DNA of 63,792 nucleotides from NCBI GenBank assembly GCA_041309305.1, contig JBFYZW010000235.1, forward strand, positions 1-63,792, read 5' to 3'. The stretch is from Deltaproteobacteria bacterium. GTDB taxonomy: Bacteria > Myxococcota > XYA12-FULL-58-9. The position numbers were made by a program, and so were the translations under genes. Each line of letters starts with the position of its first letter. Positions within the stretch are counted from its first letter, which is position 1. The notes under the pieces are model-generated. The model searched no databases. It saw nothing but the letters and a program-made list of their open reading frames with translations, and was not told the origin of the DNA. Positions 35,301 through 59,715 of this stretch are shown here, one piece after another.

Positions 35301-35937
35301 GGACCCGTTGAGCCTCAACGACGACAACATTGGCCTGCTCGTCGATGCCATCGGCAACCGCGTGCCGGCGGTACGGACCTTTTCGCCCGACGTGACCGGC
35401 GTGACCATCGCGCCGCTCGTCCTGCTCACCACGGCGACCGCCTATCGGGTGACCGTCGCCGCCGGCGGGCCACGCGATCTCGCCGGCAACGCCCTGGGCG
35501 TCGGGGCGCAGACCACCTTTGTGACCACCGCCCCGTCCGGCGACACGACGCGGCCGCAGGTCCTCAGCGTCTGCCCGCCGGACAACGCCACCAATGTCGA
35601 TCGCCTGCTGCGCCTCGGCTGTAACGCCGCCTTTCCCGGCACGGTGATCATCGTCTTCAGCGAGCCGCTCAACGGCAACACCGTGGTGGTCGGCAATATC
35701 CGTCTCCTGGAGGTGAGCAACAATCCGGTGGATCGGACCCAGGCGGTTGCGTTGCAGCCGGACGGCATCACGGTGGTGTTGACACCGGCGTTCCGCGACG
35801 CCAACGGGCTGAAGAACGGCACCACGCATCAGGTGCGGGTGTCGACCGCGGTCACCGATCTGGCCGGCAACCCGCTCTCGGGCGTCGAGGCGTGCAGCGC
35901 CCCGACCGGCGGCCAGTGCACCGACTTCGGCACCTGA
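32371..35937 (+). CDS. Large surface lipoprotein with about 10-12 SbsA/Big_5-type Ig-like repeats
   Basis: 1188 aa from the ATG at 32371, with AGGAG 5 nt upstream. Lipobox LAVGC. A recurring roughly 100-aa unit occurs: D.T.P.V....P..GA..V.......V.FSE.M....V. Confidence 0.8.
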   Translation: MVRRNWLWGAVSVAGLAVGCAPPAVVGVDLPAGNTLLGSGSATFDATTGTVTWTAFDRAGELLDSSDVLPSATAHNCEAAGWNPSSRVLSVNAFIANQSAAAVYLAPVELRITGIAQANIVASVNTDLVNAGCGAHGLTLASADLDHNGTFDCIWPDDASNTADDPGWDFSQTLGSDNALAPGEWSACRFVHFNLLVEANFTFYWQILGVVDDGWPPPPAIDAVASPTQNSAPTISGACVTTLTAPDQLSPPPAQIPTTNEITFLGGAAPVTTICDDTVFPCQTVGGVTYCGRFSASVPLVANTPNRLEVFQTLDGADRSNSSYVTVVHDSLPPQVVSTNPPDAAVGISPAANLVVTFSEAMDGATINSVDAASANIYVRRQGQTARLPATVTLASAAEAVIDPAAELPNSRTYELVITTGVRDLVGLALPAQVVVTFATAKRDDTVAPVVLGVQPPSGAVNVDRRSTVAITFSEAMLASGTTNPASPTCVDSGTVTCTAIRVLALSTGLRVPGTRMMSPDGATVTFQVNDAAYDSTGPDLSGAGCFGGQPPTAALDFDCNRSYRLEIATTLTDLAGNRLEAAHVSTFATGIEPDLVPPYVVAIAPPPGAAGVAVGIQPEVLFSEPVQAGTVNGTSITLKQDGVMLVAASVSLSADGLLARLTPTALLALDTRYVLFVNNTISDVAGNPLAAPQNASFTTVAVPDTTPPVVLSVSPANEAGNVSVATNVQATFSEALAPATVNTATFVLERYKNNGTTIESAVVGVVSLSGDRMVATFAPEQVLAKDRRHRVTVTTGVTDAAGNPMAATFVSTFTTVKDDAIPPCVTAVGPAPGSTTVARNSHFAVTFSEPMSPPSVVPSSFALRNAGGTLLTTIVSLSADGMQASLVPVAPLPLGSVTLQPRTALTDASAQQNALDQRSPVAGCLEPSGPASPTFGFTVVDTLDTTPPTVLSLTPLNGSTNVPVDTTIVVTFSESMDPLSLNDDNIGLLVDAIGNRVPAVRTFSPDVTGVTIAPLVLLTTATAYRVTVAAGGPRDLAGNALGVGAQTTFVTTAPSGDTTRPQVLSVCPPDNATNVDRLLRLGCNAAFPGTVIIVFSEPLNGNTVVVGNIRLLEVSNNPVDRTQAVALQPDGITVVLTPAFRDANGLKNGTTHQVRVSTAVTDLAGNPLSGVEACSAPTGGQCTDFGT

Positions 35938-42600: not shown

Positions 42601-44463
42601 ACCGACTCCGACGGCACGCCGAACTGCGTCGACGAGTGCCCCAACGACCCGGGCAAGATCGCCTGGGGGATCTGCGGCTGCCAGGTCCCCGAGACCGACA
42701 GCGACGGCGACAGCATGCCGGATTGCCAGGATGGATGTCCGACGGACCCCGCCAAGATCTGGGGGGGCTACTGCGGCTGCGGCGTCTCCGACGTCAACAC
42801 CGATGGCGACCAGGTGCCGGACTGCGCCGATGGCTGCCCAACCGACTACAACAAGGAGACCGCGGGCGAATGCGGCTGCGGCGTCATCGACCTCGACAGC
42901 GACATCGACGGCGTTTCCGATTGCATCGACGGCTGCCCCAGCGACCGCGACAAGACCGCCCCAGGCAATTGCGGCTGCAACCAGGTCGAGCTCGACTCCG
43001 ACGGCGACGGCACCTGCGACGGGGTCGATTTCTGCTTCCTCGATCCGAACAAGACCGACCCGGGCTACTGCGGCTGCCACGTCTCCGACGGCGACACCGA
43101 CGGCGACGGCACCGTCGACTGCGACGACGCCTGCGACCTCGACCCCGGCAAGACCCAGCCGGGGCTGTGCGGCTGCGGGGTTGCCGACACCGACTCCGAC
43201 AACGACGCGTTCCCCGACTGCATGGACGTCTGCCCGACCGACCCGAACAAGGGAGCGAGCGCCGGCACCTGCGGCTGCGGCGTGAGCGAGACCGACACCG
43301 ACGTCGACGGCGTGAAGGACTGCATCGACGGCTGCCCGAACGACTTCACCAAGACCAGCCCCGGCGCCTGCGGCTGCGGCACTCCGGACTTCGATTCGGA
43401 CAACGATGGTCATGCGAACTGCGTCGACGCCTGCCCCAACGACCCGAACAAGTGGGCGGCGGTGGGGCTCTGCGGCTGCGACGTCCCGGACAACGACACG
43501 GACACCGACGGCACGCCCGATTGCCTCGACGGGTGCCCGGGCGATCCCAACAAGGTCGCCATCGGCATCTGCGGCTGCGGCGTCTCGGATGCGGACACGG
43601 ACGGCGACACCGTGCTCGACTGCCTCGAGGAGTGCGACCTCGACCCGGCCAAGAGCGCGGCCGGGGTCTGCGGCTGCGGCGTCCCCGACACCAACAGCGA
43701 CGGCGACGCCGCGCTCGATTGCCTCGAGGAATGCGATGACGATCCGGCGAAGCTCGCGCCGGGCGCGTGCGGCTGCGGCGTGGCCGACACCAACCGCGAC
43801 GGGGACGCGGTCCTCGACTGCTTCGATGGCTGCCCCGACGATTCGAGCAAGTCCTCCCCCGGCACCTGCGGCTGCGGCGAATCGGACTACGACGGCGACG
43901 GCGACCTCGTCCCGGACTGCAACGACGGCTGCATCGGAGACCCGGCCAAGACTGCACCGGGCGCCTGTGGCTGCGGCGTCCCGGACGTGGACGCCAACAG
44001 CAACGGCACGGCGGACTGCCTCGAGACCAACGCGCCGCCGGTCGCCGTGGACGACACGGCCTCGACCGAGGAGGAGACCGCGGTCACCATCCCCGTTCTC
44101 GCCAACGACTCCGACCCGGAGGGTCAGGTGCTGACCCTCATCGCCGTCAGCTCTCCGGCCAACGGCACCGCGGTCATCTCCGAGCCGAGCGTGGTCTATA
44201 CTCCGGCCGCGGGCTTCGTCGGCACCGACAGCTTCACCTACACCCTCCGCGACCCGGGCTCGCTCGAGGACACCGCCACCGTCGTGGTCACCGTGACCGA
44301 GAGCAGCGGGAATACCGAAGACCCGGATGGTCCGCCCCCCGGCGACGCCGACACCGGCGGTGGGCAACCGGCGAGCTGCGGCTGCTCCACGAGCGCGTCG
44401 AGCGCACTCCCCTGGCTGGCGTTGCTGGTCTTCTTCCCGCGGCTGCGCCGCCGCCGCGCCTGA
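39694..44463 (+). CDS. Giant surface protein: N-terminal right-handed beta-helix, a beta-propeller-like region, 20 tandem Cys-containing TSP3-like repeats, a cadherin/VCBS-like domain and a MYXO-CTERM tail
   Basis: 1589 aa with AGGAGAG upstream. PbH1-like turns are present (IEGFEITGTTGDAV, IRNNLLVATG). The repeat region spans 42004-44026. APPVAVDDTASTEEETAVTIPVLANDSDPEGQVLTL is cadherin/VCBS-like. The tail is SCGCSTSASSALPWLALLVFFPRLRRRRA. Confidence 0.85.
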   Translation: MRNCIPARLTSFCLPFLFFHCGPADPSLGLIATATAEALGVEHTVCPVGSPQGPCDFATPTACAIGAGVTNGDICLVRGGTYHEPITFQATPFIGRTELVFRCAPGFACLIDGRGLLASGVDGYDHWTIEGFEITGTTGDAVTGYRGVRAVRDCYIHDVGGRGIAKLTGTSTATGVAERNRIERTWSSGIQCLAPPSGPVVIRNNLLVATGLKGGNAVNCTSASASLSVVHNTLDLADRTPPFADPAAYGILSASARANVVVGGNTSISVSGDYRENLVSGWAAAAYAGAGGDGGGNTTGAPSFVDTEDYHLLASSPAVDAAVTSTETEDFERSPRTGTPDKGAFEYAPGYDPETPDWPIRETVDELSLYASPALTLLPGVGGGPAVAYLDSSASRLVFARRLTNGTWRDEAVAAPVGTVSFAANGPNMRHVALAIEPTTGLPAVAWVDQAAGLLRLHYARRVGEGCGTGCASPQWSGCNATPLKTFANTDRVSFDLAMSPLTGRPGIVLWRQRTNGCGTNVPAYHVLYLSQQPNGTWTETELAATSPACTNMIPPAVALSFSPENDAAELAFTRTTGNANNFDPHYSLGELVFATNASGSFVTTVLALGDGKTTYGGTRAYLDLAHRANGDLGIAFHGKFGPGTGKIGVGFIERLGGVWAADASVPAWSLAGATILTVHGVALAYDAANLPTLGFASEYTLRLARFDGDRWDVRYVDAQRANGFWPTLALLPGGGVVLAHQQEAPHHDVKVQATQDPGGADPASVEPSSCDLCPTDPAKTAPGVCGCGTPDTDSDNDGTPNCNDGCPGDPAKVAAGTCGCGISDADSDGDAVKDCNEDCDLDPAKTDPGLCGCGVADTDSDSDGAPDCNDDCPLDPLKVAPGLCGCGVPEGSSCGCTAGSPDGDSDGTPDCADDCPAHAIKILPGICGCAVADTDTDNDSTPDCNDLCPTNNPKTSPGVCGCAELDWDTDSDGTPNCVDECPNDPGKIAWGICGCQVPETDSDGDSMPDCQDGCPTDPAKIWGGYCGCGVSDVNTDGDQVPDCADGCPTDYNKETAGECGCGVIDLDSDIDGVSDCIDGCPSDRDKTAPGNCGCNQVELDSDGDGTCDGVDFCFLDPNKTDPGYCGCHVSDGDTDGDGTVDCDDACDLDPGKTQPGLCGCGVADTDSDNDAFPDCMDVCPTDPNKGASAGTCGCGVSETDTDVDGVKDCIDGCPNDFTKTSPGACGCGTPDFDSDNDGHANCVDACPNDPNKWAAVGLCGCDVPDNDTDTDGTPDCLDGCPGDPNKVAIGICGCGVSDADTDGDTVLDCLEECDLDPAKSAAGVCGCGVPDTNSDGDAALDCLEECDDDPAKLAPGACGCGVADTNRDGDAVLDCFDGCPDDSSKSSPGTCGCGESDYDGDGDLVPDCNDGCIGDPAKTAPGACGCGVPDVDANSNGTADCLETNAPPVAVDDTASTEEETAVTIPVLANDSDPEGQVLTLIAVSSPANGTAVISEPSVVYTPAAGFVGTDSFTYTLRDPGSLEDTATVVVTVTESSGNTEDPDGPPPGDADTGGGQPASCGCSTSASSALPWLALLVFFPRLRRRRA
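42004..44026 (+). repeat. 20 tandem coding repeats of about 96 nt (D.D.DG..DC.D.CP.DP.K..PG.CGCG)
   Basis: Twenty CGC[GAQNHD] units were counted in the translation. They are Asp-rich calcium-binding TSP type-3-like loops alternating with Cys pairs. Confidence 0.85.
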
Positions 44464-47314: not shown

Positions 47315-49693
47315 TCACCCTGGGACCCGGGAGGCACGAGGGGCGCGCCGTCGTTTGACGACGAGCAGGGTGAGCGCGAGCCAGGCGCCCGGGCCAGCGC
47401 TGCGGCAGTCGCAGCCACGCACCGTGACCTCGAGCTGCAAGACGTCGCCGCCTCCGGGCGAGCGGGGGTCGCCGCCCTGCGGGTCACCGGCCGGGCCGGC
47501 GCCGTCTGGCGCACCGCCGTCCGGATTGGCAGCGCCGTCCACGGTCCCGTCGGCGGCGAAGGTCGCGGTGCCGAACCCGGCGTGGTCGTTGGTGTCGCCG
47601 GTCAGTCGGCTCCAGGCTCCCTGCGTGCGCAACCCGCCGGCGCGATCGTTGAGGGCGAGCTCGAGCCCCCAGTGTGCGCCGGGTTGCGGCGCGGCCATGC
47701 TCCAACCGGTGAAGGCGATTCGCACCTCGACGACGTAGCCGGTGTCCACGTCGCCGCCGTCGTCGAGGGTCGTGCTCGGTGTGAGCACGACGGCGCTCGA
47801 GAAGCTGCCTGCAGCCGGATCCCAGGTCACGCCGGGAGAGAACGGGCCGCGCTGGTCGTGGGTGACGCCGCGGGCGCTGACGAAGAACTTGTAGTCGTCG
47901 TCGTTCCAGCCCTGGCGATCGGCGGCGGTGTCGAACAACACCTCGATGCTGTCGTTCTCCCACAGCTCACCGTCCTCGTCGGTGATCGGCGCTTCGACGG
48001 CCGGGTCGGTCACCCGAGCGGCGAGGTAGAGCGCGTCGTCGTCCCACCCGAGCCGGTAGGTCACGTGGGCGCCGCCCGCGTCGACCTCGATTGCCGGCAG
48101 CCCCTCGTACTCGTTCAGGTCGCCGTCGATGACCGGCGGTGTTGCGAGGCGGCCGATGACGTAGCTCGGGCGTTCGATTGTGAACTGCTCGAGGTAGCCA
48201 GGTGGGTGATGGAACATCGCCTTCGTGCCGCTCGGACCGAAGGTGTCGAACGCGCGCAGCCACTTGTTGATCGAAAGGTTCGTCGGGTTCCACGCCGGGC
48301 GATTGGCGGGGGCGTAGTTCGCCGCGGCCATCGAATAGAAGTTGGCCGGGACGACACCGCACGGGTCTTCGCCCGCTTGCCCGAGGCCGGAGTCGCGCGC
48401 CGCGGCGTCAGCGGCGCGCGGCGGCCCAGAGGTGTACCAGAGCCAGAAGCGGGTGCTCGGGAACTGATCGCCGTCATCGTTCGGCAGCGAGCCCGCCGGC
48501 TCCCAATCGGGCCAGGGATCGACGCCCCACGGGTTCGCGGCTCCGTTGCGGTGGTCGCTCGAGCTCTGCAGGTACCAGCCGTTGGCCTCGTCGCCGACGA
48601 AGACCGGTGCGGTTCGGCTGATCGCGTAGTGCTGAGCCAGGAGGTTGTTGAAATAGACGCCGCCGGTCGCGTCGAACGAACACGACGCGCCGCTGCCCTC
48701 GTTGCCGAAGAACTTCGGATCCTGGCGGTAGTGGCCCTGCACGCCCGGCAGATCATTGGCACCGAGGGTGCGCTCGCCGCCGCCCAGATCGAACCCCTGC
48801 TCCCAGGTCTCGATCACCGGCTCCTGCGCCGGGAACCAGTTGACGATCGCCCACAACATCCCCGGGTCGACGTCGAGGTAGGCGTTCATCACCTCCATCA
48901 GGCCGGCGTTCGCGGCTTGCGCCGGGTCGCTCAGGCCGTGCACGTGGCCGCAGAGGTCCTGCTGCTGCCAAAGCGACGGGTAGGTCTCGTCGAAGAGCAT
49001 CGCCGCGAGCCTTGGGTCGTTCTCGTACCGGCGGGCGAAGGCGGTCATGACATCCTGCCACATCCGCACGACCGCCCAGTCCTGCATCTGGGTGTAGCTC
49101 CAGCTGTCCGAGGCGCCCGGGCGGGCGTAGCCTTCGTCGTGCATCCACTGCGGCGTTCGCGAGCCGTAGGCATAGGTCTCCATCACCCGCACGACGAGCT
49201 TGCCGCGCCCCTCGGCGAGAAACGGCTGGCCGAGGAGAGCGTCCCAGAACGCCCAATCGTAGAGCGGCTCGCCCCCTGGCGCCGCCGCCGGATCCTGCGC
49301 CGCAGCGATGCGCGCGCACGTGCCCGCCCAGTCGTACGGCGGCGTCGTCGCGTCGCGCCAGGCGCTGGTGAAGAAGTACCCGGGGTCGATGTTCAGATCG
49401 ATGCCAAGGTGCGTCACCGGCACCGCGCCAACGAACTCGCGGTAGGTATCTTCGCGGCCCGCGAACCAGCGCTCCCACTCGTCCTGAATCCCGGTCGGAT
49501 CGAAGTCGCTCAAGCGGAAGCGCGGGTAGATGCCAGGGTAGTAGCGCGTCGACGTGCCGGGCCAGACCGGCTCGCCGGCCGCTTGCGCCTGCTGCCGGGA
49601 CGGCGGTCGCTGGGGTGTCAGCTCCCGACCTCGACTCTGGCACGCACCAAGAGCGCAGACCACCAATGGCAACACGCGAGCGGCAGTGGTCAT
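47315..49693 (-). CDS. Lipoprotein with a large N-terminal putative glycan-active domain, a CBM9-like carbohydrate-binding module and a MYXO-CTERM-like tail
   Basis: 792 aa. Lipobox VVCALGAC. VIDGDLNEYEGLPAIEV...YRLGWDDDALYLAARVTDP...LWENDSIEVLFD matches the CBM9 pattern. The tail is GCDCRSAGPGAWLALTLLVVKRRR followed by 9 extra residues. Confidence 0.75.
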   Translation of the reverse strand: MTTAARVLPLVVCALGACQSRGRELTPQRPPSRQQAQAAGEPVWPGTSTRYYPGIYPRFRLSDFDPTGIQDEWERWFAGREDTYREFVGAVPVTHLGIDLNIDPGYFFTSAWRDATTPPYDWAGTCARIAAAQDPAAAPGGEPLYDWAFWDALLGQPFLAEGRGKLVVRVMETYAYGSRTPQWMHDEGYARPGASDSWSYTQMQDWAVVRMWQDVMTAFARRYENDPRLAAMLFDETYPSLWQQQDLCGHVHGLSDPAQAANAGLMEVMNAYLDVDPGMLWAIVNWFPAQEPVIETWEQGFDLGGGERTLGANDLPGVQGHYRQDPKFFGNEGSGASCSFDATGGVYFNNLLAQHYAISRTAPVFVGDEANGWYLQSSSDHRNGAANPWGVDPWPDWEPAGSLPNDDGDQFPSTRFWLWYTSGPPRAADAAARDSGLGQAGEDPCGVVPANFYSMAAANYAPANRPAWNPTNLSINKWLRAFDTFGPSGTKAMFHHPPGYLEQFTIERPSYVIGRLATPPVIDGDLNEYEGLPAIEVDAGGAHVTYRLGWDDDALYLAARVTDPAVEAPITDEDGELWENDSIEVLFDTAADRQGWNDDDYKFFVSARGVTHDQRGPFSPGVTWDPAAGSFSSAVVLTPSTTLDDGGDVDTGYVVEVRIAFTGWSMAAPQPGAHWGLELALNDRAGGLRTQGAWSRLTGDTNDHAGFGTATFAADGTVDGAANPDGGAPDGAGPAGDPQGGDPRSPGGGDVLQLEVTVRGCDCRSAGPGAWLALTLLVVKRRRAPRASRVPG

Positions 49694-49971: not shown

Positions 49972-51993
49972 ATGAGGTGGACCTCGTGTTGCGGGCACGC
50001 GGGTTCGGTGCGCCTCGTTGCCTTCGGCCTGGCGATTGCTGGCTGCACCGGGCGAACCGGATTGCGTGTCGACACCGGTGTCGGTCCGGCCGGCGACTCG
50101 GACGGCGCATCTTCTGCGGACGGGAGTGGGCTGATGCCGGCCACCGATCTGGTGTGGCTCGAGACGTCACCGCACACCGGTCCCAACGTCACCGCAGCGT
50201 GGACGCCGGCCCCCTCCGCGGCGCTCACCGGGCAGGTCTTTCAGCTCTACGCCGACGCCACCTGCACGACCGCTGTCCAGTCGCCCATCGCTCTGGGCGC
50301 CGGGGTCGGGTCGCGCGGGATCACGGTCACCGCCACCGGGTGGTACTCATACACCGTCGTGAGCCAGCTCGCCCCGAGCTTCGCGCTCGAGTCTGCCTGC
50401 TCCACCCCGATGCAGGTGATCGTGGGGCCACCCGCGCCGGGCGAGTTCGAGGCTACCCCCCTGACCATGACCGAGATCCGGTTGGACTGGCAGTCCGGGG
50501 GCGGCGCCACCGACACCTTCACGCTCGCCTATCAACCGCTGACCGAGCCGCCGGACTGCGCCACGGGCACCGTGGTCACAGGCCTGACCGGGACCACCGA
50601 TGTCCGCTCGGGCCTCGTGCCCGAGACCCTCTACGGCTTTCGCCTCTGCGCGGCCAACTCGGGGGGCAACCTCTCCGCCGGACTCACGGCCTCGGCGGCA
50701 ACGCTCGGCGACGGCGGCACCTGGACCTGGATCGACGGCCCCACGACCGACTTCTGGAGCGGCACGCCGCCATGCCCCTCGGGGCCGAACGAGCCGGCCG
50801 GGTACTACCCGTCGCCGCCTTCGGCGATCCCCCCCGCCGAGCCGCTTCGGCCCGGCGCGCGGCTCTACCACGTCTTCGTTCAGACCGACTCCGGACCGCT
50901 GCTCGTCGGCGGCGAGGGCTGCGGCGGCGGGTACTTCGACCCGGGGACGGGGCCCGTCCCGGTCGACTGGCGCTCGGTGCAGTCGGACGCCTGGCGTCGC
51001 AACACGACCACTGACACCTGGGAATTCGTCGGTGGTAGCCACGGCTTCGGGTTCACGCTGGGGTGGCCGGTGGCGAAGGGCAACGCAGCGCTGCTGCGGG
51101 GTCTGGATGGGAGCCTCTTCCTCTTCGGCGGGTTGACCGCGTCGTACCTCATGGATGCGCTGCACCGCTCCGACGACGACGGTGCGTCGTGGACCCTGAT
51201 CTGGGGCGCCGAGGACGGCAGCGGCTCCGCGGTCTGCGCCTCCTCCGGCTTCGATCCGGCCAATCGCATCAGCCGGCGCCGTGATCCGGCGCGGTGGGTC
51301 GACTCCGAGGGGACGTTCTGGTTCTACGGTGGCACGGGTGGTGGCGATCTCGCGGACCTGTGGCGCTTCGATCCGATCACGGCGCAGTGGGCCTGCATCG
51401 ACGGCGACGCGGTGCTCAACCAGCCGCAGACCGCGACGGATCCCGGCAGCTTCGCGGACGCCGCCTTTTGGACCGGCAAAGACGAGAACCTCTATCTCTT
51501 CGGCGGCGGGTCGGGGGCCGTCGGCGCGGGCTACAGCTCACTGTGGCGCTACTGCTTGACCGTGACCGAGCCCTGCTCGCCGGCCACCTGGCACACCTGG
51601 ACCCTCGTCAAAGGGAGCTGGGCGGGCAACCAACCCGGCACCTACGGCTCGCTCGGCGTGCCCGACGCGACCAACGTTCCGGGCTCCCGCGCCGAGTCGG
51701 TGTTCTGGATGGACGACGCCGGCCACTTCTGGCTGTTCGGGGGCGCGGGCTTCGACGAGGCGGGCGACAACGGCGGCCTGAACGACCTGTGGCGGTTCGA
51801 CGGCACGAATTGGACCTGGCTCGGTGGCAGCAAGGTGATCAACGACGCTGGCTCGCGCGGCGCCTTGAACGTGCCCGCCCCGACCAATCTCCCCGACAGC
51901 CGCATCGCTGCGGCTGCGGTGCGCCTCGAGGACGGCTCGGTCCTCATGTACGGCGGTGACGGCCACGGCGATCTGTGGCGCTGGACCCCTTGA
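49972..51993 (+). CDS. Lipoprotein with fibronectin type III domains and Kelch-type beta-propeller repeats
   Basis: 673 aa. Lipobox LAIAGC. FN3-like PGEFEATPLTMTEIRLDWQ. Kelch-like DLWRFDPITAQW, SLWRYCL and DLWRFDGTNWTWLGG. Confidence 0.8.
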   Translation: MRWTSCCGHAGSVRLVAFGLAIAGCTGRTGLRVDTGVGPAGDSDGASSADGSGLMPATDLVWLETSPHTGPNVTAAWTPAPSAALTGQVFQLYADATCTTAVQSPIALGAGVGSRGITVTATGWYSYTVVSQLAPSFALESACSTPMQVIVGPPAPGEFEATPLTMTEIRLDWQSGGGATDTFTLAYQPLTEPPDCATGTVVTGLTGTTDVRSGLVPETLYGFRLCAANSGGNLSAGLTASAATLGDGGTWTWIDGPTTDFWSGTPPCPSGPNEPAGYYPSPPSAIPPAEPLRPGARLYHVFVQTDSGPLLVGGEGCGGGYFDPGTGPVPVDWRSVQSDAWRRNTTTDTWEFVGGSHGFGFTLGWPVAKGNAALLRGLDGSLFLFGGLTASYLMDALHRSDDDGASWTLIWGAEDGSGSAVCASSGFDPANRISRRRDPARWVDSEGTFWFYGGTGGGDLADLWRFDPITAQWACIDGDAVLNQPQTATDPGSFADAAFWTGKDENLYLFGGGSGAVGAGYSSLWRYCLTVTEPCSPATWHTWTLVKGSWAGNQPGTYGSLGVPDATNVPGSRAESVFWMDDAGHFWLFGGAGFDEAGDNGGLNDLWRFDGTNWTWLGGSKVINDAGSRGALNVPAPTNLPDSRIAAAAVRLEDGSVLMYGGDGHGDLWRWTP

Positions 51994-52409
51994 GGCCGGT
52001 GCACCGACCGCACCAGCGCGCGACATTCACCTTCCCTCCGGTCCAGACGCGCGCGCTGCTGTTGTGGGGCACGCGCGATCCGGCGCTCAATGCACGACCA
52101 CCTACGGGCAGGTGCGCTTTCCGGACGACTCGCCGTTCCGTTTTCTCGTCTCCGCTCTGCCGCGCGAGACGATCGAGGTCATCCTCTTCTTCGTCACCGA
52201 GTCCGACGCCGGCCTCGACACCCGCATCCTCTGGTACGAGCCCGGCTGCTCGGACGTCTACACCTACTCGAGTGACGGCGAGAACCTGTTCGAGTTGGCG
52301 ATGGGACCGGCTGGGTCAGCTTCCGCCCCAGTAACGCGTCGCGTCAGCCCGGCGGTTGTCAGCGCACGTCGCGCCCCACATAATGGACGTTCCTTCGGGG
52401 GAGGGAGCC

Positions 52410-53033
52410 ATGGAACGTCGGCGACTCAAACGTCAGCCGCGCCGATTGTCTGTCAGCTTCGGCGAGGCTGAGCTCACCGGCAACGGCATCACCCGGGACG
52501 TCTCGGCCGACGGCGCCTTCATCATGGCCCAACGACCGCCGCCCATCGGCACCCGACTGCACCTGGCGGTCAACTACAACAAGAACCGCAAGCTCTTCTT
52601 CGAGGCGGTGGTTCGCCGGCATTGCTACGCCCCGCCCGAGCTGCGGCAGGTGCAGCAGAGCGGCTTCGCCGTGACCTTCCTCGGTCCGCGCGAGCTCGTC
52701 GAGGAGCTGACCCCGGCGGCGGCCGCCGCGCCGGTGTTGCGCCGCGAGCTCGGCGACCGGGCGGCGTTGGCCAGCTGCATGACACAGGAGATCGCGATGG
52801 GCGGAGTCTTCGTGCACACCGACACGGAGTACGCCGCCGGCACCCCGTTGCGGATCGAGCTCCGGCTCACCTTCCTCGAGCGGACCCTCTCCTTCCCCGC
52901 CCGCGTGGTGCAGGTCGTGCGCACGCCGGTGCGCGGCATCGCCGTCGTCTTCGACGACCCGGCGGCGGTCAGCGAGCGTCTGTCGGCCGCGCACGACACG
53001 TCGCCATTGCCCGAAGAGAAACTCCGCGCATAG
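52410..53033 (+). CDS. PilZ domain protein (two PilZ-like halves)
   Basis: 207 aa from the ATG at 52410, with GGGGAGGGAG upstream. RRRLKRQPRR...GITRDVSADGAFI fits RxxxR...D.S..G. The second half, QEIAMGGVFVHTD, is degenerate. Confidence 0.7.
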   Translation: MERRRLKRQPRRLSVSFGEAELTGNGITRDVSADGAFIMAQRPPPIGTRLHLAVNYNKNRKLFFEAVVRRHCYAPPELRQVQQSGFAVTFLGPRELVEELTPAAAAAPVLRRELGDRAALASCMTQEIAMGGVFVHTDTEYAAGTPLRIELRLTFLERTLSFPARVVQVVRTPVRGIAVVFDDPAAVSERLSAAHDTSPLPEEKLRA

Positions 53034-53193: not shown

Positions 53194-53239
53194 GGAAAAC
53201 CGAAAACGGGGTGTACGCGAATCGCGCACCCCCGTTTAG
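53194..53239 (+). repeat. REP-like hairpin, copy 3 (short form)
   Basis: gggaaaaccgaAAACGGGGtgtaCGCGaatCGCGcaCCCCCGTTTag. Confidence 0.75.
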
Positions 53240-53283: not shown

Positions 53284-54315
53284 ATGGCTGAGGCGGTCGC
53301 CCGGGCGAAAAAGCAGCCGCTAGAGCTGACGCTCGGCGATGAGGCGGAGTCAGCCTACCTGGCGCGCGCCAGCGCCGCGCTCGATGCCGCGCGCCTGAAC
53401 AACTTCTTTCCCGACCCGCGGCCTCTCGCCAGTCACCTCCGCTGCCTGGCGCCGGCCGTCCACGGCGGACTCTATCCCGGCCTGCCGCTGGACGTTCGCT
53501 CCGGGCTGCCCGCCTACCGCGCCTGGGCCCGCCTGCAGGCCGACCGCGAGGTGGCGGGGTCTTCGCTCGCGGGTCTTCCCCCGCGCGAGGTGCTGGTGGC
53601 GCGGGCGCGGCGCAGCGGAGCGACGATCCACGGCAAGCGTCTGCTCAAGTACGACTACTTCTCTGCACTGGCTGGCCAGCCGCCGGTGACGCTCAGCGCG
53701 CTGCGCATCGCCTTGCGCCGGGTCGTGCCGGAGAAGTCGACCGCCGAGTTCAGCATCGTCTTCGACAAGCTGGACCTGTGCGGCCTCTGGCTGCGCACGA
53801 CGATCGAGTTGGCTCAGCGCGACTCGTTCTGGAACCGACGCATGGTCGCCCTCACCGACGACAGCGCTGGACAGACCGAGGCCCTGCGGGCTCTGGTCTA
53901 CGCCGCCGCCGGCAACGAGGCGGAGTTGATCTTCGCTCAGTTGGCCGCCACCGAGGGGTTGCAGGTCGAGCGCGTGATCAAGGGGACGATCGGCCCGTTC
54001 TTCTGCGCCGGAGTGCGTGTCCCCGCGCCGTTGCAGCCGCTGGTCGAGGACAGTGCGGCGCTGATCGCCACCTTCGCGCTCGAACGGGTGGCCGTCGACC
54101 AGGCCACCGACGGCAACAACGACCCGCTCGCCGGCTCCTGGAGCGAGAGCCTCTCGCCGGAGGCGCGCCAGACCTACCTCGCCGCGCGGGCGCGTTGGGG
54201 TTACCGCGTCTTCAAGGATCGCAAGCTGGTGGCGCCACCGCAGTTGGCCGCGGCGCTGACTGCCTTCTGCCGGGCCAGCGGCACGCGCAATCTGATCTAC
54301 CCCCTGGCAGGGTAG
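53284..54315 (+). CDS. Hypothetical protein, first gene of the GHKL operon
   Basis: 343 aa from the ATG at 53284. No motif was recognised. It ends 6 nt before the next start. Confidence 0.6.
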   Translation: MAEAVARAKKQPLELTLGDEAESAYLARASAALDAARLNNFFPDPRPLASHLRCLAPAVHGGLYPGLPLDVRSGLPAYRAWARLQADREVAGSSLAGLPPREVLVARARRSGATIHGKRLLKYDYFSALAGQPPVTLSALRIALRRVVPEKSTAEFSIVFDKLDLCGLWLRTTIELAQRDSFWNRRMVALTDDSAGQTEALRALVYAAAGNEAELIFAQLAATEGLQVERVIKGTIGPFFCAGVRVPAPLQPLVEDSAALIATFALERVAVDQATDGNNDPLAGSWSESLSPEARQTYLAARARWGYRVFKDRKLVAPPQLAAALTAFCRASGTRNLIYPLAG

Positions 54316-54321
54316 GGACCG

Positions 54322-56067
54322 ATGAACGACGTGACCACGCCTGGCGCCGCCGACGCGCTCGATGCCCTGATCAGTCAGTTCAGCTCCCCGCTCGATTGTC
54401 TTCGCGAGCTGGTGCAGAACAGCATCGACGCCGGCAGTCCGCGCATCGACGTCTGGCTGAGCTACGAGCCGGCGGCCGATGGCGGTGGCACGATGCTCGT
54501 CCACGTCGACGATATCGGTGAGGGCATGGATGAGGCGATCATCGACCAACAGCTGACCACGCTGTATGCCTCGAGCAAGGCCGGTGACCTGACCAAGATC
54601 GGCAAGTTCGGCATCGGCTTCGTCTCGGTCTTCGCCCTGGCGCCGCGCGCCGTGCTGGTACAGACCGGCCGGGGCGGCGAGTACTGGGAGGTGTTCTTCG
54701 GCGAGGACCGCAGCTTCACGAAGTCCCGCCTGGAGGAGCCGGTGGAGGGCACCCGGGTGACCCTCTTCCTCGCCGGCGACGCCGCTCGCTACGCGACCCT
54801 GGTCGCTTCGTCGCGGGCGACCTTGCATCGCTGGTGTCGCCACTCGGACACCGAGATCACCTTCGCCGATCGCAGTGACCCGCGCGCCAGGACGCCGGCG
54901 CTGATCAACGAACCGTTCACCCTCGAGGCGGCGCTGGGCGTGCGCGTCGAGCTCGACGGAACCGAGATCCTGCTCGGCTACCGCCGAGCGCCCGAGTACG
55001 CCTTCTTCAACAAAGGGCTGACCCTGTTCGCCACCCGCGAGGCGGAGCTGGCCCTCGGCGCCCACGCCGAGCGCTTCGCGCACATCGGCTTCAAGCTCAA
55101 GTCGCGCTACCTCGAGCACACCCTCAGCCGAGAGACCATCCTCAAGGACCAGAACTACGACAAGGCCATCGCCCTGCTGCGCAGCGCCGCCGATCAGCGG
55201 CTGGCCACGGCCCTGGTCGAGGAGCTGGTGACTTTGGCGGCCCGGCCGGCGGTGGACCTGCCGGCGCAGCAACGTTGGGCCGAGCTGTGCGCCTACCTCG
55301 CCGACGAGCCGGACGCGGTCCTGCTCGCCGCCCGATCGCGGCCGGTGGTGCGCACCACCAACGGCCCGGCAATCTCGCTCGCCGAGCTGGAACGGTGCGG
55401 CCGGGGGGCGGGGCGGCTGTTCATCGCTGGCGAGCGCTCGCCGATGACCGACCGTCTCGCCGCAGACGGGGTCGCCGTCGTCTACGACCTGCGCGCGGCC
55501 GGCGCGATCGACTCCAGCCCGGTGCGCAAGCTGTTGATCCGCTACCTGGTGGCACAGCACCAGCGCTCCTTCGCCGGCCGGCTCGAGCAGGTGGTGCCGC
55601 TAAACCTGCGGGCACGGGTCGGTCGGCCGGGGGAATGGCGCAACCGGGATCGTCGGGCCTTCTACGCCGCCCAGCTGGTCGAGGTCGAGCAGGATTGGCT
55701 GACCATCGAGCCGCTCACCGAGGCCGGCCCGGCGACGCGGCTGGTGGCCGCTGCGGCTGGCCTGCTCGCCCGCGTCCAGGCGCCGGTGCGCGAGCTGCGG
55801 GCTTGCCGCCTCGTCGAGGCGACCGGCAGCGCGCCGCTGTTCTTGGTCGGGGACGGGCGGACGGCGCGACCGCTCGTCGCCGGCGGGGCCGTGAGCCGCG
55901 GGCCGGTGGTCGTCAACTGCACCCACCCGCACGTCGCGGCGCTCTCGCGCCTGCATCAGCAGCGGCCGGCGCTGGCGACCTATGTCCTGGCCAAGAACGT
56001 CTTGCTCCACGTCGATCGTGGCCTCGAGCTCGACCTCGCGTTGATTCGCGCCGCGGTGGAGGCCTAG
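54322..56067 (+). CDS. Hsp90-like GHKL ATPase domain protein (HATPase_c_3 / sacsin-type N-terminus)
   Basis: 581 aa. LRELVQNSIDAG is motif I (ExxxNxxDA). VDDIGEGMD is motif II (DxGxG). LTKIGKFGIGFVSVF is motif III (GxxGxG). The order and spacing match the Hsp90 N-domain. Confidence 0.8.
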   Translation: MNDVTTPGAADALDALISQFSSPLDCLRELVQNSIDAGSPRIDVWLSYEPAADGGGTMLVHVDDIGEGMDEAIIDQQLTTLYASSKAGDLTKIGKFGIGFVSVFALAPRAVLVQTGRGGEYWEVFFGEDRSFTKSRLEEPVEGTRVTLFLAGDAARYATLVASSRATLHRWCRHSDTEITFADRSDPRARTPALINEPFTLEAALGVRVELDGTEILLGYRRAPEYAFFNKGLTLFATREAELALGAHAERFAHIGFKLKSRYLEHTLSRETILKDQNYDKAIALLRSAADQRLATALVEELVTLAARPAVDLPAQQRWAELCAYLADEPDAVLLAARSRPVVRTTNGPAISLAELERCGRGAGRLFIAGERSPMTDRLAADGVAVVYDLRAAGAIDSSPVRKLLIRYLVAQHQRSFAGRLEQVVPLNLRARVGRPGEWRNRDRRAFYAAQLVEVEQDWLTIEPLTEAGPATRLVAAAAGLLARVQAPVRELRACRLVEATGSAPLFLVGDGRTARPLVAGGAVSRGPVVVNCTHPHVAALSRLHQQRPALATYVLAKNVLLHVDRGLELDLALIRAAVEA

Positions 56068-59000
56068 GTGTCGCACATCGACGAGGTCATCGCCCGCAGC
56101 CGGCGGGGCGCCGGCGGCGGTGGACGTCACACCTTTCAGCTGGCCCGCGCCCAGGCGATCACCAAGCTGCGCCAGTTCGCCCTCGCCGATCCCTCCTTCT
56201 ACGTCCTCGAGCTCATTCAAGCGGCCGCCGCCTGCCAGGCGGCCAACGTCAACATCGACTTCGATCGGCGGACCGCGCTGGTCGCCTGGTCCGGTCGAGC
56301 GCTGCGTCGCGAAGAGCTGGCTCACCTGTTCGACTACCTGTTCACGGCCAGGGATCGGCTGGAGGTCGCGCATCTGCGCGCTCTGGCGCTCGGCGTCAAC
56401 GCCCTGTTCGTCTTCGCGCCCGAGCAGGTGGTGATCGAATCGGGGGACGGCACGCGCGCCAACACCCACCGGGTGGTGATCGACGGCGACGCCGAGGTGG
56501 CGACCCTCGGCCCCGGCGCCGAGCCGTTGTCCGGCAGCTACGTCCTGGCCACCGGCCTGCGCCGCCGGCGCGCCGCCAACCTCGGCCTGGCGCCGGTCGG
56601 CGAGCAGGTGGCGATCGAGGACCGCTGTCTGTGCGCCACCGTGCCGATCCTGGTCAACGGCGAGGCGCCGTTCGGCTACAGCCGCCAGCGCGTGCCGCGC
56701 CTCTGGGGCTTCTCTCCTCAGGTGGAGATCGACGAAGGCGACCTGTACGGCAGCATCGGGGTGTGCCCGTGGGCCGAGCCGCTGCACTTCCGGCTGCTCA
56801 CTCACGGGGTGTGGATCGAGTCGGTGGAGTATCCGTTGATCCCGGGCGCCAAGCTCGGTGGCGTGGTCAGCTTCGACCGGCTGCGCAAAACCGCCGATCA
56901 CGGCGGCATCGTGCGCGACGACGTCTACGAGGAGCTGTGGATCCGTTTGCGACCGTACGCACAACAACTCGTCGGCGGCTTCGCCGTGCCGACCATCCGC
57001 GACGTCCGCCTGGCCTCGGGGGAGGCGATCCCGCCGCCGGCGCTGCGCGGTTGGCTTCAGGGGCAGCGTCGCGTGGTGCTCGCTGACCCCGACGCCGAGG
57101 AGGCGTCGCGGCAGGCGGCGGGGGCGGTGGCCGCAGCCCTGGCCGCGCCGTTGGTCACGGTGCCGGCCGCCGAGCGTCGGTCGCTGCACCTGTTGGCCGG
57201 GCCGCAGGTCGATCTGGTCGAGCCGACTGGCACCGCGGCCGAGGTGGCCTTCTATCGCCAGGCCGAGCTCGGCCCGCCCGCCGAGCCCTACCTCGCGCCG
57301 CCGCTGGCGCTGCCGCCGGTCCTGCTCGGTGATGCCGGTCCCAGCGCCGCGACCCTCGCTGCCGAGCTCGGGGCAGCGGTCAGGATCGAGGCCATGCTCT
57401 ATGTCCCGGCGGCGCCGCCGACGCCGTTCGACGGCGTCCTCGCGGAGGTGCTCGTCGCCGATCGGCTCGTCTGGGAGGGGGAGCTCCCCAGCGCCTTCGT
57501 CGGTCAACGGCTGCAGGTGCGGTTGACCAACGTCGCGGTGGCGCGGCTGCTGGACAGCGCTCCGCCTAGCACCGGTCGGGACCGGCGAGCCCGGGAGTTG
57601 GCCGAGTGGGTGCTGACGCGAGCCCGCGAGCAACAGGTCGCGCTGCACACCCGCACGGTCGAGACCTTGGCGGCGCCAGGGGCCGGCCTAGGCGAGGCCG
57701 CCCGCCGGCTGGCGTTGCGCCTGTTGTCCCGCAACGCCGTGGTGCGATTGCGCGGCGGAGAGGTCGGCGGCCCACCGCGGGTCAGCATCGCCTGGTTGAA
57801 TGCCGGCCCCGATCTGCTCGACGCGCCGTTGTTCGTCACCCTCGCCGGTGAGCGGTTGACCCCGCGCCAGCTGGTGGCGCAGATGGCGCGCACCCACGGG
57901 CTGGTCTACGGCGTCATCCCCGAGGTGCCGGCCGATCTCGTCGGCCTCGACCGACGGCTCATCCTCGCTCTCGACCAGCACAGCGAACGGAGCCTGACGA
58001 ACCTCGTCGGTGAGGCCGCCTATGTGCGCGTCGACGGGCGCGACCGGTTGGCCGAGCAGGCCGGGGTGCAGGTCCGCGATCTGGCCGTCGGCCTGCGCCG
58101 ATACCCGGCGTTCCCGCTATGGGTCGAAGGGGCGAACCCGAGTCGTTGGCCCGCCGCGCAACGTCGCGCTTGCCTGACAGCGTTGGTGCAGCAGCTCACC
58201 GACCGCTTCTTGGGCCGAGCACCGGCCCAGCCGAGCTCGCCCACCGCCTTCGTCACCTGGGAGGAGAACCGCCGCCAAGCCTGCCGGCACCTGCAGGCGT
58301 TCGCCGCCGCCGCGATGGCCTGTCCCGAGTTGGACGGCGTCGCCACGGTTCTCGACCTGCCGCTCTTCTTTGCCGACGACGGTGGGACCCTCACGCCCCG
58401 GCAGCTGGCGACCGCGTTCACCGTCGGGGCCCTTACCCTCGTCTACAGCGGGGCGTTGGCCGCGCGCGAGCTCGGCACGCTCGCCGCCGCCGCCGCGAGC
58501 GGCGCCGCACCGGCGCCGACGACGTCGACGCGGCTGGCCGCCAGCCCGTTCGTGGCCCACCTGCTCAGCCGCGTTGGGCGCGTGCGGGTCGCGTTCGACT
58601 TCGACGTCGACGACCGCGAAGGCGCGCCGGTGCCCGACGCCTCCGCGACCCCGTTGCTGGTCCAGGCCGACCTGTGTGACGAATGGGTCACAGGCAGCCT
58701 CGGGATCCCTCACCTCGTTCCCGCCGATCCCGCGATCGTCCTCGTCGACCCCGACGGCCACACGCGGCGCGTCCTGCCGGAGCCGGTCGGCCCCGGGGCC
58801 CTGGTCGGCTGCCTGCGCCTGCGCCGCGCGGAGAGCGGTGGCCCGTCCGTCGACCAGCTCGCGGCGGCGATCGACCGCACGCGTGAGCACCTGGTCGCCA
58901 AGGCCTTCGGCGCTCTCACTGAAGGCGCTGCGAGCGATCGCCGCCGGCTCGAGGAGCTCCTGCTCGCCTATGCGGGCGATCAGCTGCTGCTCAGCGCCGA

Positions 59001-59715
59001 TCCCTTCGGAGTGGTCACCGCATCGGTGCGCCGGCCGTTGGCCCTCGACATCCTCAACCTGCCGCTCTTCCCCGCCGGCGAGGCGCAGGCCGCCACCGGC
59101 TGGCGACTGGTGCGCGAGTTCGCCGCCTTAGGCAGCGCCGCCGCCGGCGGGCCCACCGCGTTGCGCCGTGTGCTTGCTCACACCACCGCCGCTCATCTCC
59201 GCAGCTGGCTGACCGCGACGTTGTCCGAGCGGCGGGTCAGCCGGCTGCCGAGCACCCGGTTTGGCGTCCCCGCCGACGAGCGGCGTGCCGTCGCCAACGC
59301 CGCGGCCTACCTCGAGCGGCTGAACACCTGGTGGACGCGCCTGTGCCGGCAGACAACCGCCGGTGGGCAGGGCCCGATCGTCGTCCTCGAGCTCAGTCCC
59401 GGGCCGCTCTCGGCAGTGGCGACGGAGTCGGGCAGCGACCCGGCGGCCCCTCTCGGGCGGCTCGACCTCGACCGCGGCGCACTGCTGCTCGATCGGTACC
59501 ATTGGTTGGTGCGCGAGGCCTTTGCCCACACCGACGACCTGGAGCGGCTCGGTTGGCTCCTGCTGGCCGCCTTCGCGCTGGTCAACGCGCGCCTGACCGC
59601 GGTGACCAACGACCAGGAGCTGCTCTTCCAACTGGCCGTGGCCCGGGCCATCGCTGATCCGCCCGGCTCGGTCACCAACGTCACCCTGCTGGGCAGTCCA
59701 CTCAACGGCGGTTGA
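56068..59715 (+). CDS. Large (1215 aa) protein with a degenerate GHKL/Hsp90-like N-terminal domain and a long Ala/Leu-rich helical remainder
   Basis: The GTG lies directly after the upstream TAG. YVLELIQAAAACQAANVNIDFD, WSGRALRREELAHLFDYLF and ALALGVNALFVFAPEQVVIES align by eye to motifs I-III of the preceding protein. The catalytic Asn, the DxGxG motif and the Gly loop are all replaced. Confidence 0.65.
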   Translation: MSHIDEVIARSRRGAGGGGRHTFQLARAQAITKLRQFALADPSFYVLELIQAAAACQAANVNIDFDRRTALVAWSGRALRREELAHLFDYLFTARDRLEVAHLRALALGVNALFVFAPEQVVIESGDGTRANTHRVVIDGDAEVATLGPGAEPLSGSYVLATGLRRRRAANLGLAPVGEQVAIEDRCLCATVPILVNGEAPFGYSRQRVPRLWGFSPQVEIDEGDLYGSIGVCPWAEPLHFRLLTHGVWIESVEYPLIPGAKLGGVVSFDRLRKTADHGGIVRDDVYEELWIRLRPYAQQLVGGFAVPTIRDVRLASGEAIPPPALRGWLQGQRRVVLADPDAEEASRQAAGAVAAALAAPLVTVPAAERRSLHLLAGPQVDLVEPTGTAAEVAFYRQAELGPPAEPYLAPPLALPPVLLGDAGPSAATLAAELGAAVRIEAMLYVPAAPPTPFDGVLAEVLVADRLVWEGELPSAFVGQRLQVRLTNVAVARLLDSAPPSTGRDRRARELAEWVLTRAREQQVALHTRTVETLAAPGAGLGEAARRLALRLLSRNAVVRLRGGEVGGPPRVSIAWLNAGPDLLDAPLFVTLAGERLTPRQLVAQMARTHGLVYGVIPEVPADLVGLDRRLILALDQHSERSLTNLVGEAAYVRVDGRDRLAEQAGVQVRDLAVGLRRYPAFPLWVEGANPSRWPAAQRRACLTALVQQLTDRFLGRAPAQPSSPTAFVTWEENRRQACRHLQAFAAAAMACPELDGVATVLDLPLFFADDGGTLTPRQLATAFTVGALTLVYSGALAARELGTLAAAAASGAAPAPTTSTRLAASPFVAHLLSRVGRVRVAFDFDVDDREGAPVPDASATPLLVQADLCDEWVTGSLGIPHLVPADPAIVLVDPDGHTRRVLPEPVGPGALVGCLRLRRAESGGPSVDQLAAAIDRTREHLVAKAFGALTEGAASDRRRLEELLLAYAGDQLLLSADPFGVVTASVRRPLALDILNLPLFPAGEAQAATGWRLVREFAALGSAAAGGPTALRRVLAHTTAAHLRSWLTATLSERRVSRLPSTRFGVPADERRAVANAAAYLERLNTWWTRLCRQTTAGGQGPIVVLELSPGPLSAVATESGSDPAAPLGRLDLDRGALLLDRYHWLVREAFAHTDDLERLGWLLLAAFALVNARLTAVTNDQELLFQLAVARAIADPPGSVTNVTLLGSPLNGG

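Follow-up and report, generated by a model that had tools for sequence, protein, structure and literature searches.

A conserved gene pair of Myxococcota encoding a divergent Hsp90-type ATPase and a paralog with a dismantled nucleotide site

Chaperones of the Hsp90 family are normally homodimers, the protomers of which dimerize through their C-terminal domains and close their N-terminal domains on ATP binding. They have been studied as symmetric homodimers, and the need for both ATP sites and the purpose of asymmetry are long-running questions that are usually approached with engineered heterodimers. In TRAP1, the two protomers are asymmetric, and one ATP site may differ in its role (PMC5550277). 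HtpG proteins (groups A to C) have not been described with a dead, elongated operon partner (PMC1525184). Sacsin exhibits a short lid, beta-strands directly after the ATP domain, and an arginine supplied by the following domain, and it lacks the Hsp90 C-terminal region; the role of this arginine and of its Hsp90 counterpart in the catalytic loop (i.e., R380 [Arg380] in yeast) has been described (PMC9880540). Here, we describe three co-directional open reading frames (ORFs; genes A, B, and C) on the forward strand of a 63,792-nucleotide (nt) stretch of contig JBFYZW010000235.1 from a Deltaproteobacteria bacterium (the whole stretch analyzed is referred to as the window). We propose, with a probability of about 55%, that B and C constitute a conserved, translationally coupled, paralogous Hsp90-type pair of a branch of Myxococcota (i.e., Nannocystaceae, Bradymonadales, and relatives) that forms an ATP-driven, chaperone-like heteromer of one live and one dead protomer. 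No published description of this bacterial B-C pair was found in our literature searches.

B resembles HtpG and other Hsp90s in its order of N-terminal, middle, and C-terminal domains (N-M-C), in its length class (581 versus 624 amino acids [aa]), in ATP motifs I to III together with the "SRE" arginine of the catalytic loop, and in a profile alignment that covers the whole of HtpG. It differs from them in that the curated models fail on it, its lid is short, and it has no charged linker. Its likeness to sacsin (SACS PF25794 and NF047352; HSP-NRD plus HSP-MRD) lies in the head, which scores best against sacsin-type models, just below their cutoffs, and in the lid, strand, and arginine traits given above, whereas B also aligns with the Hsp90 C-terminal region that is missing from sacsin. 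C recalls sacsin in being a very long protein generated by internal repetition of Hsp90-derived parts, and it keeps the Hsp90 domain order. However, in the single polypeptide of eukaryotic sacsin, the complete unit, ATPase included, occurs three times alongside UBL, DnaJ, and HEPN domains, whereas C repeats the middle module only and has a single dead head, the live ATPase being a separate protein (B). An Hsp90 homodimer consists of identical active protomers; here, in contrast, an active gene stands beside a paralog that is predicted to be permanently inactive, is twice as long, and carries a fourfold middle module. Asymmetric GHKL dimers (i.e., the closed state of TRAP1, engineered Hsp90/TRAP1 heterodimers, and dimers of the MutL-alpha type) also combine one live and one altered head, but these dimers owe their asymmetry to conformation or to engineering, or else retain ATP binding in both subunits, whereas the putative pairing of B with C would be genetically hard-wired.

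A divergent Hsp90-type ATPase and its paralog

Curated models recognize only the ATP-binding head of B. It matches HATPase_c_3 of Pfam (E value, 5.7e-9) and narrowly misses the cutoffs of Pfam SACS (29.0 bits; cutoff, 32.8) and of the sacsin N-terminal model NF047352 (47.0 bits; cutoff, 50). The HtpG and HSP90-family equivalogs (NF003555 and NF010683) score only 30.0 and 35.2 bits against cutoffs of 371 and 455, respectively, and PF00183 (Pfam HSP90) gives no match at an E value of ≤1. An earlier note, made from the sequence alone, had described B as an Hsp90-like GHKL ATPase; these scores agree with that description and set B apart from ordinary htpG orthologs. In an alignment of 36 members of the B family, eight residues of the head (E29, N33, D64, G66, G68, G94, G97, and G99) are invariant, as are those of the loop region (S261-R262...E265-H266-T267-L268...R270).

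The B-family profile aligns with Escherichia coli HtpG over residues 1 to 576 of B and 1 to 615 of HtpG (hhalign; probability, 97%; E value, 8.6e-11). This alignment pairs KSRYLEHTLSRE of B with DSSDLPLNVSRE of HtpG, that is, with the Hsp90 catalytic loop including its arginine; the loop core HTLSRE (TLSRE) of B stands opposite LNVSRE (NVSRE) of HtpG, and RPvvRTtnGpAiSL of B stands opposite LLRFASTH...TVSLEDYV. Searched alone with phmmer, the catalytic-loop segment of B had no match in the PDB. The AlphaFold (AF2) model of B (predicted local distance difference test [pLDDT], 87.6; predicted template modeling score [pTM], 0.82) contains a short lid at aa 85 to 95 (pLDDT, <50) between helices 71 to 83 and 97 to 106. 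A Foldseek search with this model retrieved full-length Hsc82, HSP90B (i.e., HSP90-beta), TRAP1, and HtpG (E value, about 1e-17; template modeling [TM] score, 0.45 to 0.50 over about 670 to 700 alignment columns), and all 50 best matches were Hsp90-family chains. The statement of the earlier note that B lacks HtpG middle and C-terminal signatures thus holds for the curated models, but not for the family profile, which follows HtpG through the loop arginine to the C-terminal region, or for the predicted structure, which superposes on full-length Hsp90s. B is a complete but very divergent Hsp90-type ATPase with a sacsin-like head, and its sequence has all the features that an Hsp90 requires to bind and hydrolyze ATP.

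In view of these comparisons, it is highly improbable that B belongs with the GHKL enzymes that act on DNA (the MutL, MORC, or Topo VI-B type) and that C is its DNA-binding or clamp partner. Its head does have subthreshold matches to the MutL equivalog (33 bits; cutoff, 180) and to a Topo VI-B model (19.9 bits; cutoff, 274), MutL N-terminal domains occur among its PDB sequence matches (E value, about 2e-4), and active/inactive heterodimers are known among MutL homologs. However, the best PDB sequence and profile matches of B are Hsp90 N-domains, and the whole-length alignment with HtpG includes the SRE arginine of Hsp90s instead of a transducer lysine, which is a feature of MutL and GyrB. Moreover, the 50 best Foldseek matches of B and of C belong to the Hsp90 family without exception, with no MutL, MORC, Topo VI-B, or GyrB chains among them, and searches of Pfam and NCBIfam revealed no DNA-related, endonuclease, Toprim, S5-fold, or DNA-binding domain in either protein.

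Neither C nor its family has a sequence match in Pfam, NCBIfam, PADLOC, or the PDB, and no Pfam family recurred when the members of the C alignment were scanned one by one. In a profile-profile comparison (hhalign) of the head slices (residues 1 to 190 of C and 1 to 175 of B), residues 40 to 160 of C aligned with residues 21 to 147 of B (P = 4.7e-5). The segments that face each other in C and B are ELIQAA and ELVQNS, S/W-G-G and DDxGEG, LFD(F/Y)LF and LTxLF/Y, and RxLALGVNA and GKFGIGFVS. The catalytic-base glutamate is kept in C (E48), while the asparagine is replaced by Ala52, the aspartate by Trp74, and GxxGxG by RALALG; the head has thus lost the adenine-binding aspartate and two of the three glycines, and one glycine is kept. 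Across the C family, the position of the Mg-binding asparagine is occupied by A, S, or G in all 159 relatives with a recognizable motif and never by N. At the same time, motifs of its own (i.e., ESGDGT, LFDFLFA, and KTADH) are well conserved in 76 aligned copies, more so than the tail, and K274, D277, and H278 are invariant. A low-stringency hhalign alignment places RLRKTADH of C opposite YLEHTLSR of B, so that the position of the loop arginine is taken by the invariant His278 of KTADH. Judging from these residues, C is unable to bind ATP in the canonical manner, yet it is strongly constrained.

The head is the best-conserved part of the C family. A word-indexed search found 53 relatives of C, all annotated as "hypothetical," and an exhaustive search found 694 representative sequences (E value, ≤1e-3), many of which share the first ~300 residues only. 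What stays constant across the family is the dead head, and the tails vary freely. Within one set of relatives (P0277 to P0321), there are many proteins of ~1,070 to 1,160 aa in which the match to C is confined to the first ~300 residues (~40% identity).

Beyond the head, the domains of C follow those of B in order. The middle module of B (aa 276 to 440) consists of helices and a small alpha-beta-alpha unit with the motif "LP(L)F/LRT..G..SL," and it occurs once in B; its counterpart in HtpG is "LLRF...SLEDYV...IYYI" (hhalign). Four successive segments of C match this module (residues 305 to 505, P = 6.4e-4; 505 to 695, P = 6e-5; 695 to 925, P = 1e-5; and 925 to 1100, P = 5e-3), and residues 1100 to 1215 of C match residues 440 to 581 of B (P = 6.8e-4). 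The remaining 22 cells of the C-B domain matrix have P values of at least 0.038, which leaves a collinear pattern, and comparisons of control families (i.e., the families of A and of the two neighbors described below, A0 and an AAA ATPase) with B, C, and HtpG gave P values of at least 0.03. Comparison of the C tail with itself gave probabilities of 79% and 76% at shifted registers. Domain slices were needed for these alignments, since hhalign of C with B over their whole lengths returned a single middle-module match and missed the head. In a 35-sequence alignment of C, two residues of the C-terminal domain (W1163 and E1184) are invariant and four more (L1166, Y1169, N1173, and H1183) are nearly so. 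The ~900 residues after the head, which the earlier note had read as Ala/Leu/Arg-rich helical sequence, are instead of mixed alpha/beta character and comprise four copies of the B module and a B-like C-terminal domain.

In the AF2 model of C (residues 1 to 1198; pLDDT, 87.0; pTM, 0.69), helices and strands succeed one another as they do in B throughout the head and the first middle subdomain; beyond these lie repeated units of helices and a small alpha-beta-alpha fold, with two beta-rich inserts. The 50 top Foldseek chains of this model in the PDB, which are led by TRAP1 (E value, 5.6e-12) and then GRP94 and Hsc82, match over 450 to 690 alignment columns. On the basis of the head alignment, the census of relatives, and this model, the inactivated GHKL-like head suggested in the earlier note is upheld, and C is a paralog of B with a dismantled nucleotide site. 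We place high confidence in this part of the explanation (i.e., homology and architecture).

The B-C pair across genomes and a candidate heteromeric clamp

Scanning GTDB with one genome per species, we found 433 places that encode a relative of B. The best 80 of these 433 are all Myxococcota-type records (i.e., Nannocystaceae, Bradymonadales, Polyangia, and unclassified metagenome-assembled genomes [MAGs]), a few of them mislabeled, and they include the cultured strains Plesiocystis pacifica, Enhygromyxa salina, and Paraliomyxa miuraensis. Of these loci, 67 have at least 1 kb of DNA downstream of B, and hidden Markov model (HMM) scans place C directly 3' of B in 64 of them (96%). The association of B with C thus extends well beyond the genome in which it was noticed, to marine as well as predatory myxobacteria. 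In the window, the TAG stop codon of B directly abuts the GTG start codon of C (0 nt), and stop and start codons abut or overlap in other genomes too. A GGAGG located 5 nt before this GTG, inside the 3' end of B, is inferred to act as the ribosome-binding site for C. The A/B junction is TAG-ggaccg-ATG (6 nt). The three ORFs, both gaps, and the peptide motifs quoted in the earlier note were all read back from the sequence and its translations, and the junctions conform to the tight operon that it had described. The neighbors of the pair vary by lineage (an ion channel, a DAO-type oxidoreductase, Ser/Thr kinases, hybrid histidine kinases, and an M23 peptidase), and the setting of B-C is chromosomal, not mobile.

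Arrays were also observed. Two loci have the arrangement B-C-C (L005:7068-16527 and L009:173-9557), the second C belonging to a distinct "LLARG" subtype, and two have the arrangement B-C-B'-C' (L017:1029-11102 and L026:7920-17715), in which the second pair is much more divergent and B' adjoins C'. The family has diversified into matched subtypes.

Given that Hsp90 protomers associate by their C-terminal domains and close at their N-terminal domains with ATP, a B:C heteromer is the simplest model. C descends from a B-like gene with its domain order kept; its nucleotide site has been dismantled in every known member, and amplification of one middle-domain module to four has doubled its length. 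B and C would assemble via their related C-terminal domains, as Hsp90 protomers do, into an asymmetric clamp in which B alone would bind and hydrolyze ATP, with the single site driving closure against the pseudo-head of C. The long four-module arm of C may present an extended surface for clients or may serve as a scaffold. The role of such a complex would be that of a chaperone or remodeling machine rather than of a DNA or defense system, and the AAA ATPase that occasionally neighbors the pair fits protein remodeling. Among the options listed in the earlier note, the ATP-driven clamp or chaperone-like machine is the one favored by the evidence, with B being of the Hsp90 type and C its dead paralog. 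We see an even chance for the heteromeric clamp as such. A stricter version, in which B-C is an obligate, hard-wired, asymmetric Hsp90-type heterodimer containing a nucleotide-free pseudo-protomer with a long client-binding arm, is offered tentatively and is open to considerable doubt; under this version, the pair would parallel, in prokaryotes, the giant repeat chaperone sacsin and would offer a natural means of learning how many ATP sites are required in an Hsp90 clamp.

Several observations weigh against a B-C heteromer of Hsp90 type. Three of the 67 loci lack a C adjoining B (L011, L048, and L071), and in the word-indexed search matches to B far outnumbered those to C (1,139 versus 53); more than 1,100 relatives of B are full-length proteins of 570 to 630 aa, mostly annotated as "ATP-binding protein." Because of this excess and these three loci, B is probably able to act without an adjacent C. 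The HMM scores of B and C are only moderately correlated across loci (Pearson, 0.59; Spearman, 0.37), and this correlation is confounded by phylogeny. An apparent B-C fusion ORF in a MAG contig (L056:1872-5432) was set aside as a probable frameshift or masked-sequence assembly artifact, since B does not stay in frame to its end and this contig includes masked sequence. As for the homology of C, the P values of its individual segments against B are modest (1e-5 to 5e-3), and residues 187 to 305 compared alone with residues 175 to 276 of B do not reach significance (P = 0.068). The TM scores of the C model in Foldseek are low (0.3 to 0.5 on the target), and the Foldseek output does not specify the aligned residues of C. 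The C profile has no significant similarity to HtpG (hhalign; P ≥ 0.024), and the link from C to Hsp90 accordingly runs through the similarity of C to B, that of B to HtpG, and the predicted fold of C.

Part of this evidence suits an alternative in which B and C are cotranscribed but act separately, with B as a specialized homodimeric chaperone and C as a nonenzymatic scaffold, client, or regulator of B. Such an arrangement would agree with the surplus of B-type genes, the loci in which B has no adjacent C, the two copies of C per B in the B-C-C arrays, and the usual homodimeric state of Hsp90s, and the strongly conserved residues peculiar to the C head suggest a new function rather than simple partnership. 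It accounts less readily for the 96% adjacency, the fixed gene order in which the stop codon of B abuts or overlaps the start codon of C, the B-like C-terminal domain retained in C, and the occurrence of divergent subfamilies as matched B'-C' pairs. We consider separate action unlikely, although more probable than the other alternatives to the heteromer.

Gene A, defense searches, and the surroundings of the operon

The family of A is small, with 12 homologs that are 27 to 62% identical. No match for A or its family was found in Pfam, NCBIfam, PADLOC, or the PDB, no Pfam family recurs across the individually scanned members of its alignment, and hhalign detected no relation of A to B, C, or HtpG. 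A paralogous relationship of A to B or C, or to the upstream genes in two other loci (L001 and L005), was ruled out by BLASTP and hhalign. Among the 72 loci with enough upstream DNA, A lies directly 5' of B in 11 and within 8 kb in 20, mostly in Bradymonadales. It is usually the second gene of a two-gene module, A0-A, in which A0 nearly always precedes A. The A0 proteins (350 to 380 aa) belong to no Pfam family, and their weak matches are to coiled-coil segments of unrelated proteins; a weak HSDR_N match (E value, 0.0016; below the cutoff) was not trusted. The module is found away from B-C in two loci (L006 and L008) and inverted downstream of C in three (L037, L084, and L086).

A classic AAA ATPase (PF00004; about 550 to 600 aa) is encoded near B in nine loci. 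It lies between A and B in three of them (A0-A-AAA-B-C) and upstream of B in six more, directly so in five; in L023, a kinase gene intervenes between it and B, while the other eight are direct neighbors. Neither A0 nor this AAA ATPase was detected in the window by tblastn. A is thus a recurrent but facultative associate of B-C and not a third subunit or the dedicated 343-aa partner of the earlier note: A0 usually accompanies it, the AAA ATPase does so in some loci, and it is found apart from B-C as well. A possible role is that of a cofactor or client of the pair.

In L006, where A0-A stands without B-C, it is immediately followed by convergent genes for an ArsR-type HTH_20 protein and an AHSA1 (i.e., Aha1-like START-fold) protein (L006:11026-11803). 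Aha1 is an Hsp90 cochaperone. ArsR-AHSA1 pairs are common, and their placement here is therefore probably a coincidence.

The changing position of the A0-A module (upstream, downstream, inverted, or alone) would also be compatible with an antiphage or conflict system (MORC-, Tiamat-, or Paris-like) in which the GHKL ATPase B senses or licenses an effector, C is the scaffold or sensor, and the effector consists of A together with A0 and the AAA ATPase. We consider such a system, which was an option of the earlier note, quite improbable. In its favor, PADLOC (PADLOC-DB v2) weakly matched aa 21 to 108 of B, i.e., the ATP-motif region only, to TmtA of Tiamat (E values, 1.4e-7 to 0.04), a TIR_2 gene lies near A0-A in L006, the B-C pair has undergone tandem duplications, and A and C have no known function. 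However, the likeness to TmtA, which has a sacsin-like GHKL motif region as B does, is confined to ~85 residues of a single protein of 1,300 to 1,650 aa and leaves C, A, and the rest of B unmatched. PADLOC gave no match at a meaningful E value for A, C, A0, or the AAA ATPase, and searches of A and C with Pfam, NCBIfam, and PADLOC revealed neither nuclease or TIR domains nor protease or membrane effector domains. In the cultured Nannocystaceae and Bradymonadales among the results (Plesiocystis, Enhygromyxa, Paraliomyxa, Pseudenhygromyxa, and Bradymonas), the pair or B lies on the chromosome in surroundings that are conserved within lineages, next to housekeeping or signaling genes. There were no relatives of B in 2.9 million viral contigs (IMG/VR), no full-length relatives in a phage collection (only GHKL-motif matches, e.g., rIIA), and no match to C in a plasmid collection, although Myxococcota elements are poorly represented in these collections. 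Among the ORFs scanned in the window, no defense or mobile-element genes were found, and the trio does not lie in a defense island but is flanked by surface proteins and pta.

The features are listed in Table 1. The G+C contents at the third codon positions of A, B, and C (0.89 to 0.91) match those of other real genes of this sequence, the overall G+C content of which is ~70%. The start of A at ATG 53284 fits the lengths of its homologs (330 to 347 aa for full-length ones). Upstream of the trio are a Kelch/fn3 protein gene and then a PilZ gene (positions 52356 to 53033), and pta follows downstream on the opposite strand. The stem-loop between the PilZ gene and A had been called a REP-type hairpin in the earlier note. 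Its z score is only -1.56, and an exact-arm search found no second copy in the window, although this search also missed the stem-loop itself, which has an extra C in its right arm; the REP label is thus not sustained, and the structure is possibly a terminator of the PilZ gene that sets the operon apart. The flanks of the window (Kelch, PilZ, Pta, and others) exhibited no synteny with 88 related loci. Elsewhere in the window, very large proteins of secreted or surface type abound (NHL/DUF4215, seven Big_5 repeats, cadherin/Big_9/beta-helix, CBM9, and Kelch/fn3), as is typical of Myxococcota. A tRNA-Ala(GGC) gene at positions 8258 to 8351 is the sole tRNA gene of the window, and no Rfam family reached its gathering score anywhere in the window.

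Table 1. Features of the window and of related loci (positions in the window unless a locus is given)
Feature	Position	Strand	Description
Gene A	53284-54315 (ORF 53263/53284-54315)	+	343 aa; uncharacterized family; facultative accessory of the B-C pair
Gene B	54322-56067	+	ATG start; 581 aa; divergent Hsp90/sacsin-like ATPase with full N-M-C layout and intact active site
B, N-terminal Bergerat (GHKL) ATP-binding domain	54322-54846	+	aa 1-175; ELVQNSIDAG, DDIGEGMD, GKFGIGFVS
B, catalytic-loop segment	55096-55140	+	aa 259-273; KSRYLEHTLSRETIL; R270 invariant
Putative ribosome-binding site of C	56058-56062	+	GGAGG; read from the sequence, before GTG 56068
Gene C	56068-59715	+	GTG start; 1,215 aa; pseudo-Hsp90 paralog of B
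C, pseudo-ATPase head	56068-56637	+	aa 1-190; elements in Bergerat-fold order, with substituted ATP-binding residues
C, beta-rich first middle subdomain	56626-56982	+	aa 187-305; KTADH replaces the catalytic-loop Arg
C, four tandem modules	56980-59367	+	aa 305-1100; beta-rich inserts near aa 410-490 and 860-920
C, C-terminal helical domain	59365-59712	+	aa 1100-1215; related to the B C-terminal domain
Stem-loop between the PilZ gene and A	53204-53237	+	AAACGGGGTG...CACCCCCGTTT, then TTTAG; fold, -25.5 kcal/mol
A0-A modules	L025:5795-7905, L052:5799-7961, L062:5674-7922, L006:8947-11023, L008:3910-6080		
AAA ATPase loci	L013:3035-4789, L044:3903-5708, L007:6254-7978; also L010, L011, L023, L037, L047, L058		
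Large secreted/surface-type ORFs	10685-14593, 32338-35937, 39694-44463, 47315-49693 (-), 49972-51993		Rest of the window

Implications for the Hsp90 family in Myxococcota

The B-C pair does not amount to a new class of machine; it is a conserved variation, so far unreported and suggestive as to mechanism, on a chaperone that has been studied intensively. Two families of Nannocystaceae and Bradymonadales, the members of which have been labeled "ATP-binding protein" and "hypothetical protein," respectively, can now be annotated, and bacterial proteins are linked to the sacsin-style Hsp90-like domain, the mechanism of which is disputed. Cultured carriers are available for phenotype work (i.e., Enhygromyxa salina, Plesiocystis pacifica, Paraliomyxa miuraensis, and Bradymonas sediminis, in the last of which B was found). 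If the proposed reading is true, the pair would be a natural system that fixes the live and the dead protomer in separate genes and combines them with a stretched middle region. With the pair present in 64 genomes and about 700 representative sequences of C, these bacteria would then have carried out an evolutionary experiment on the need for ATP sites and on asymmetry.

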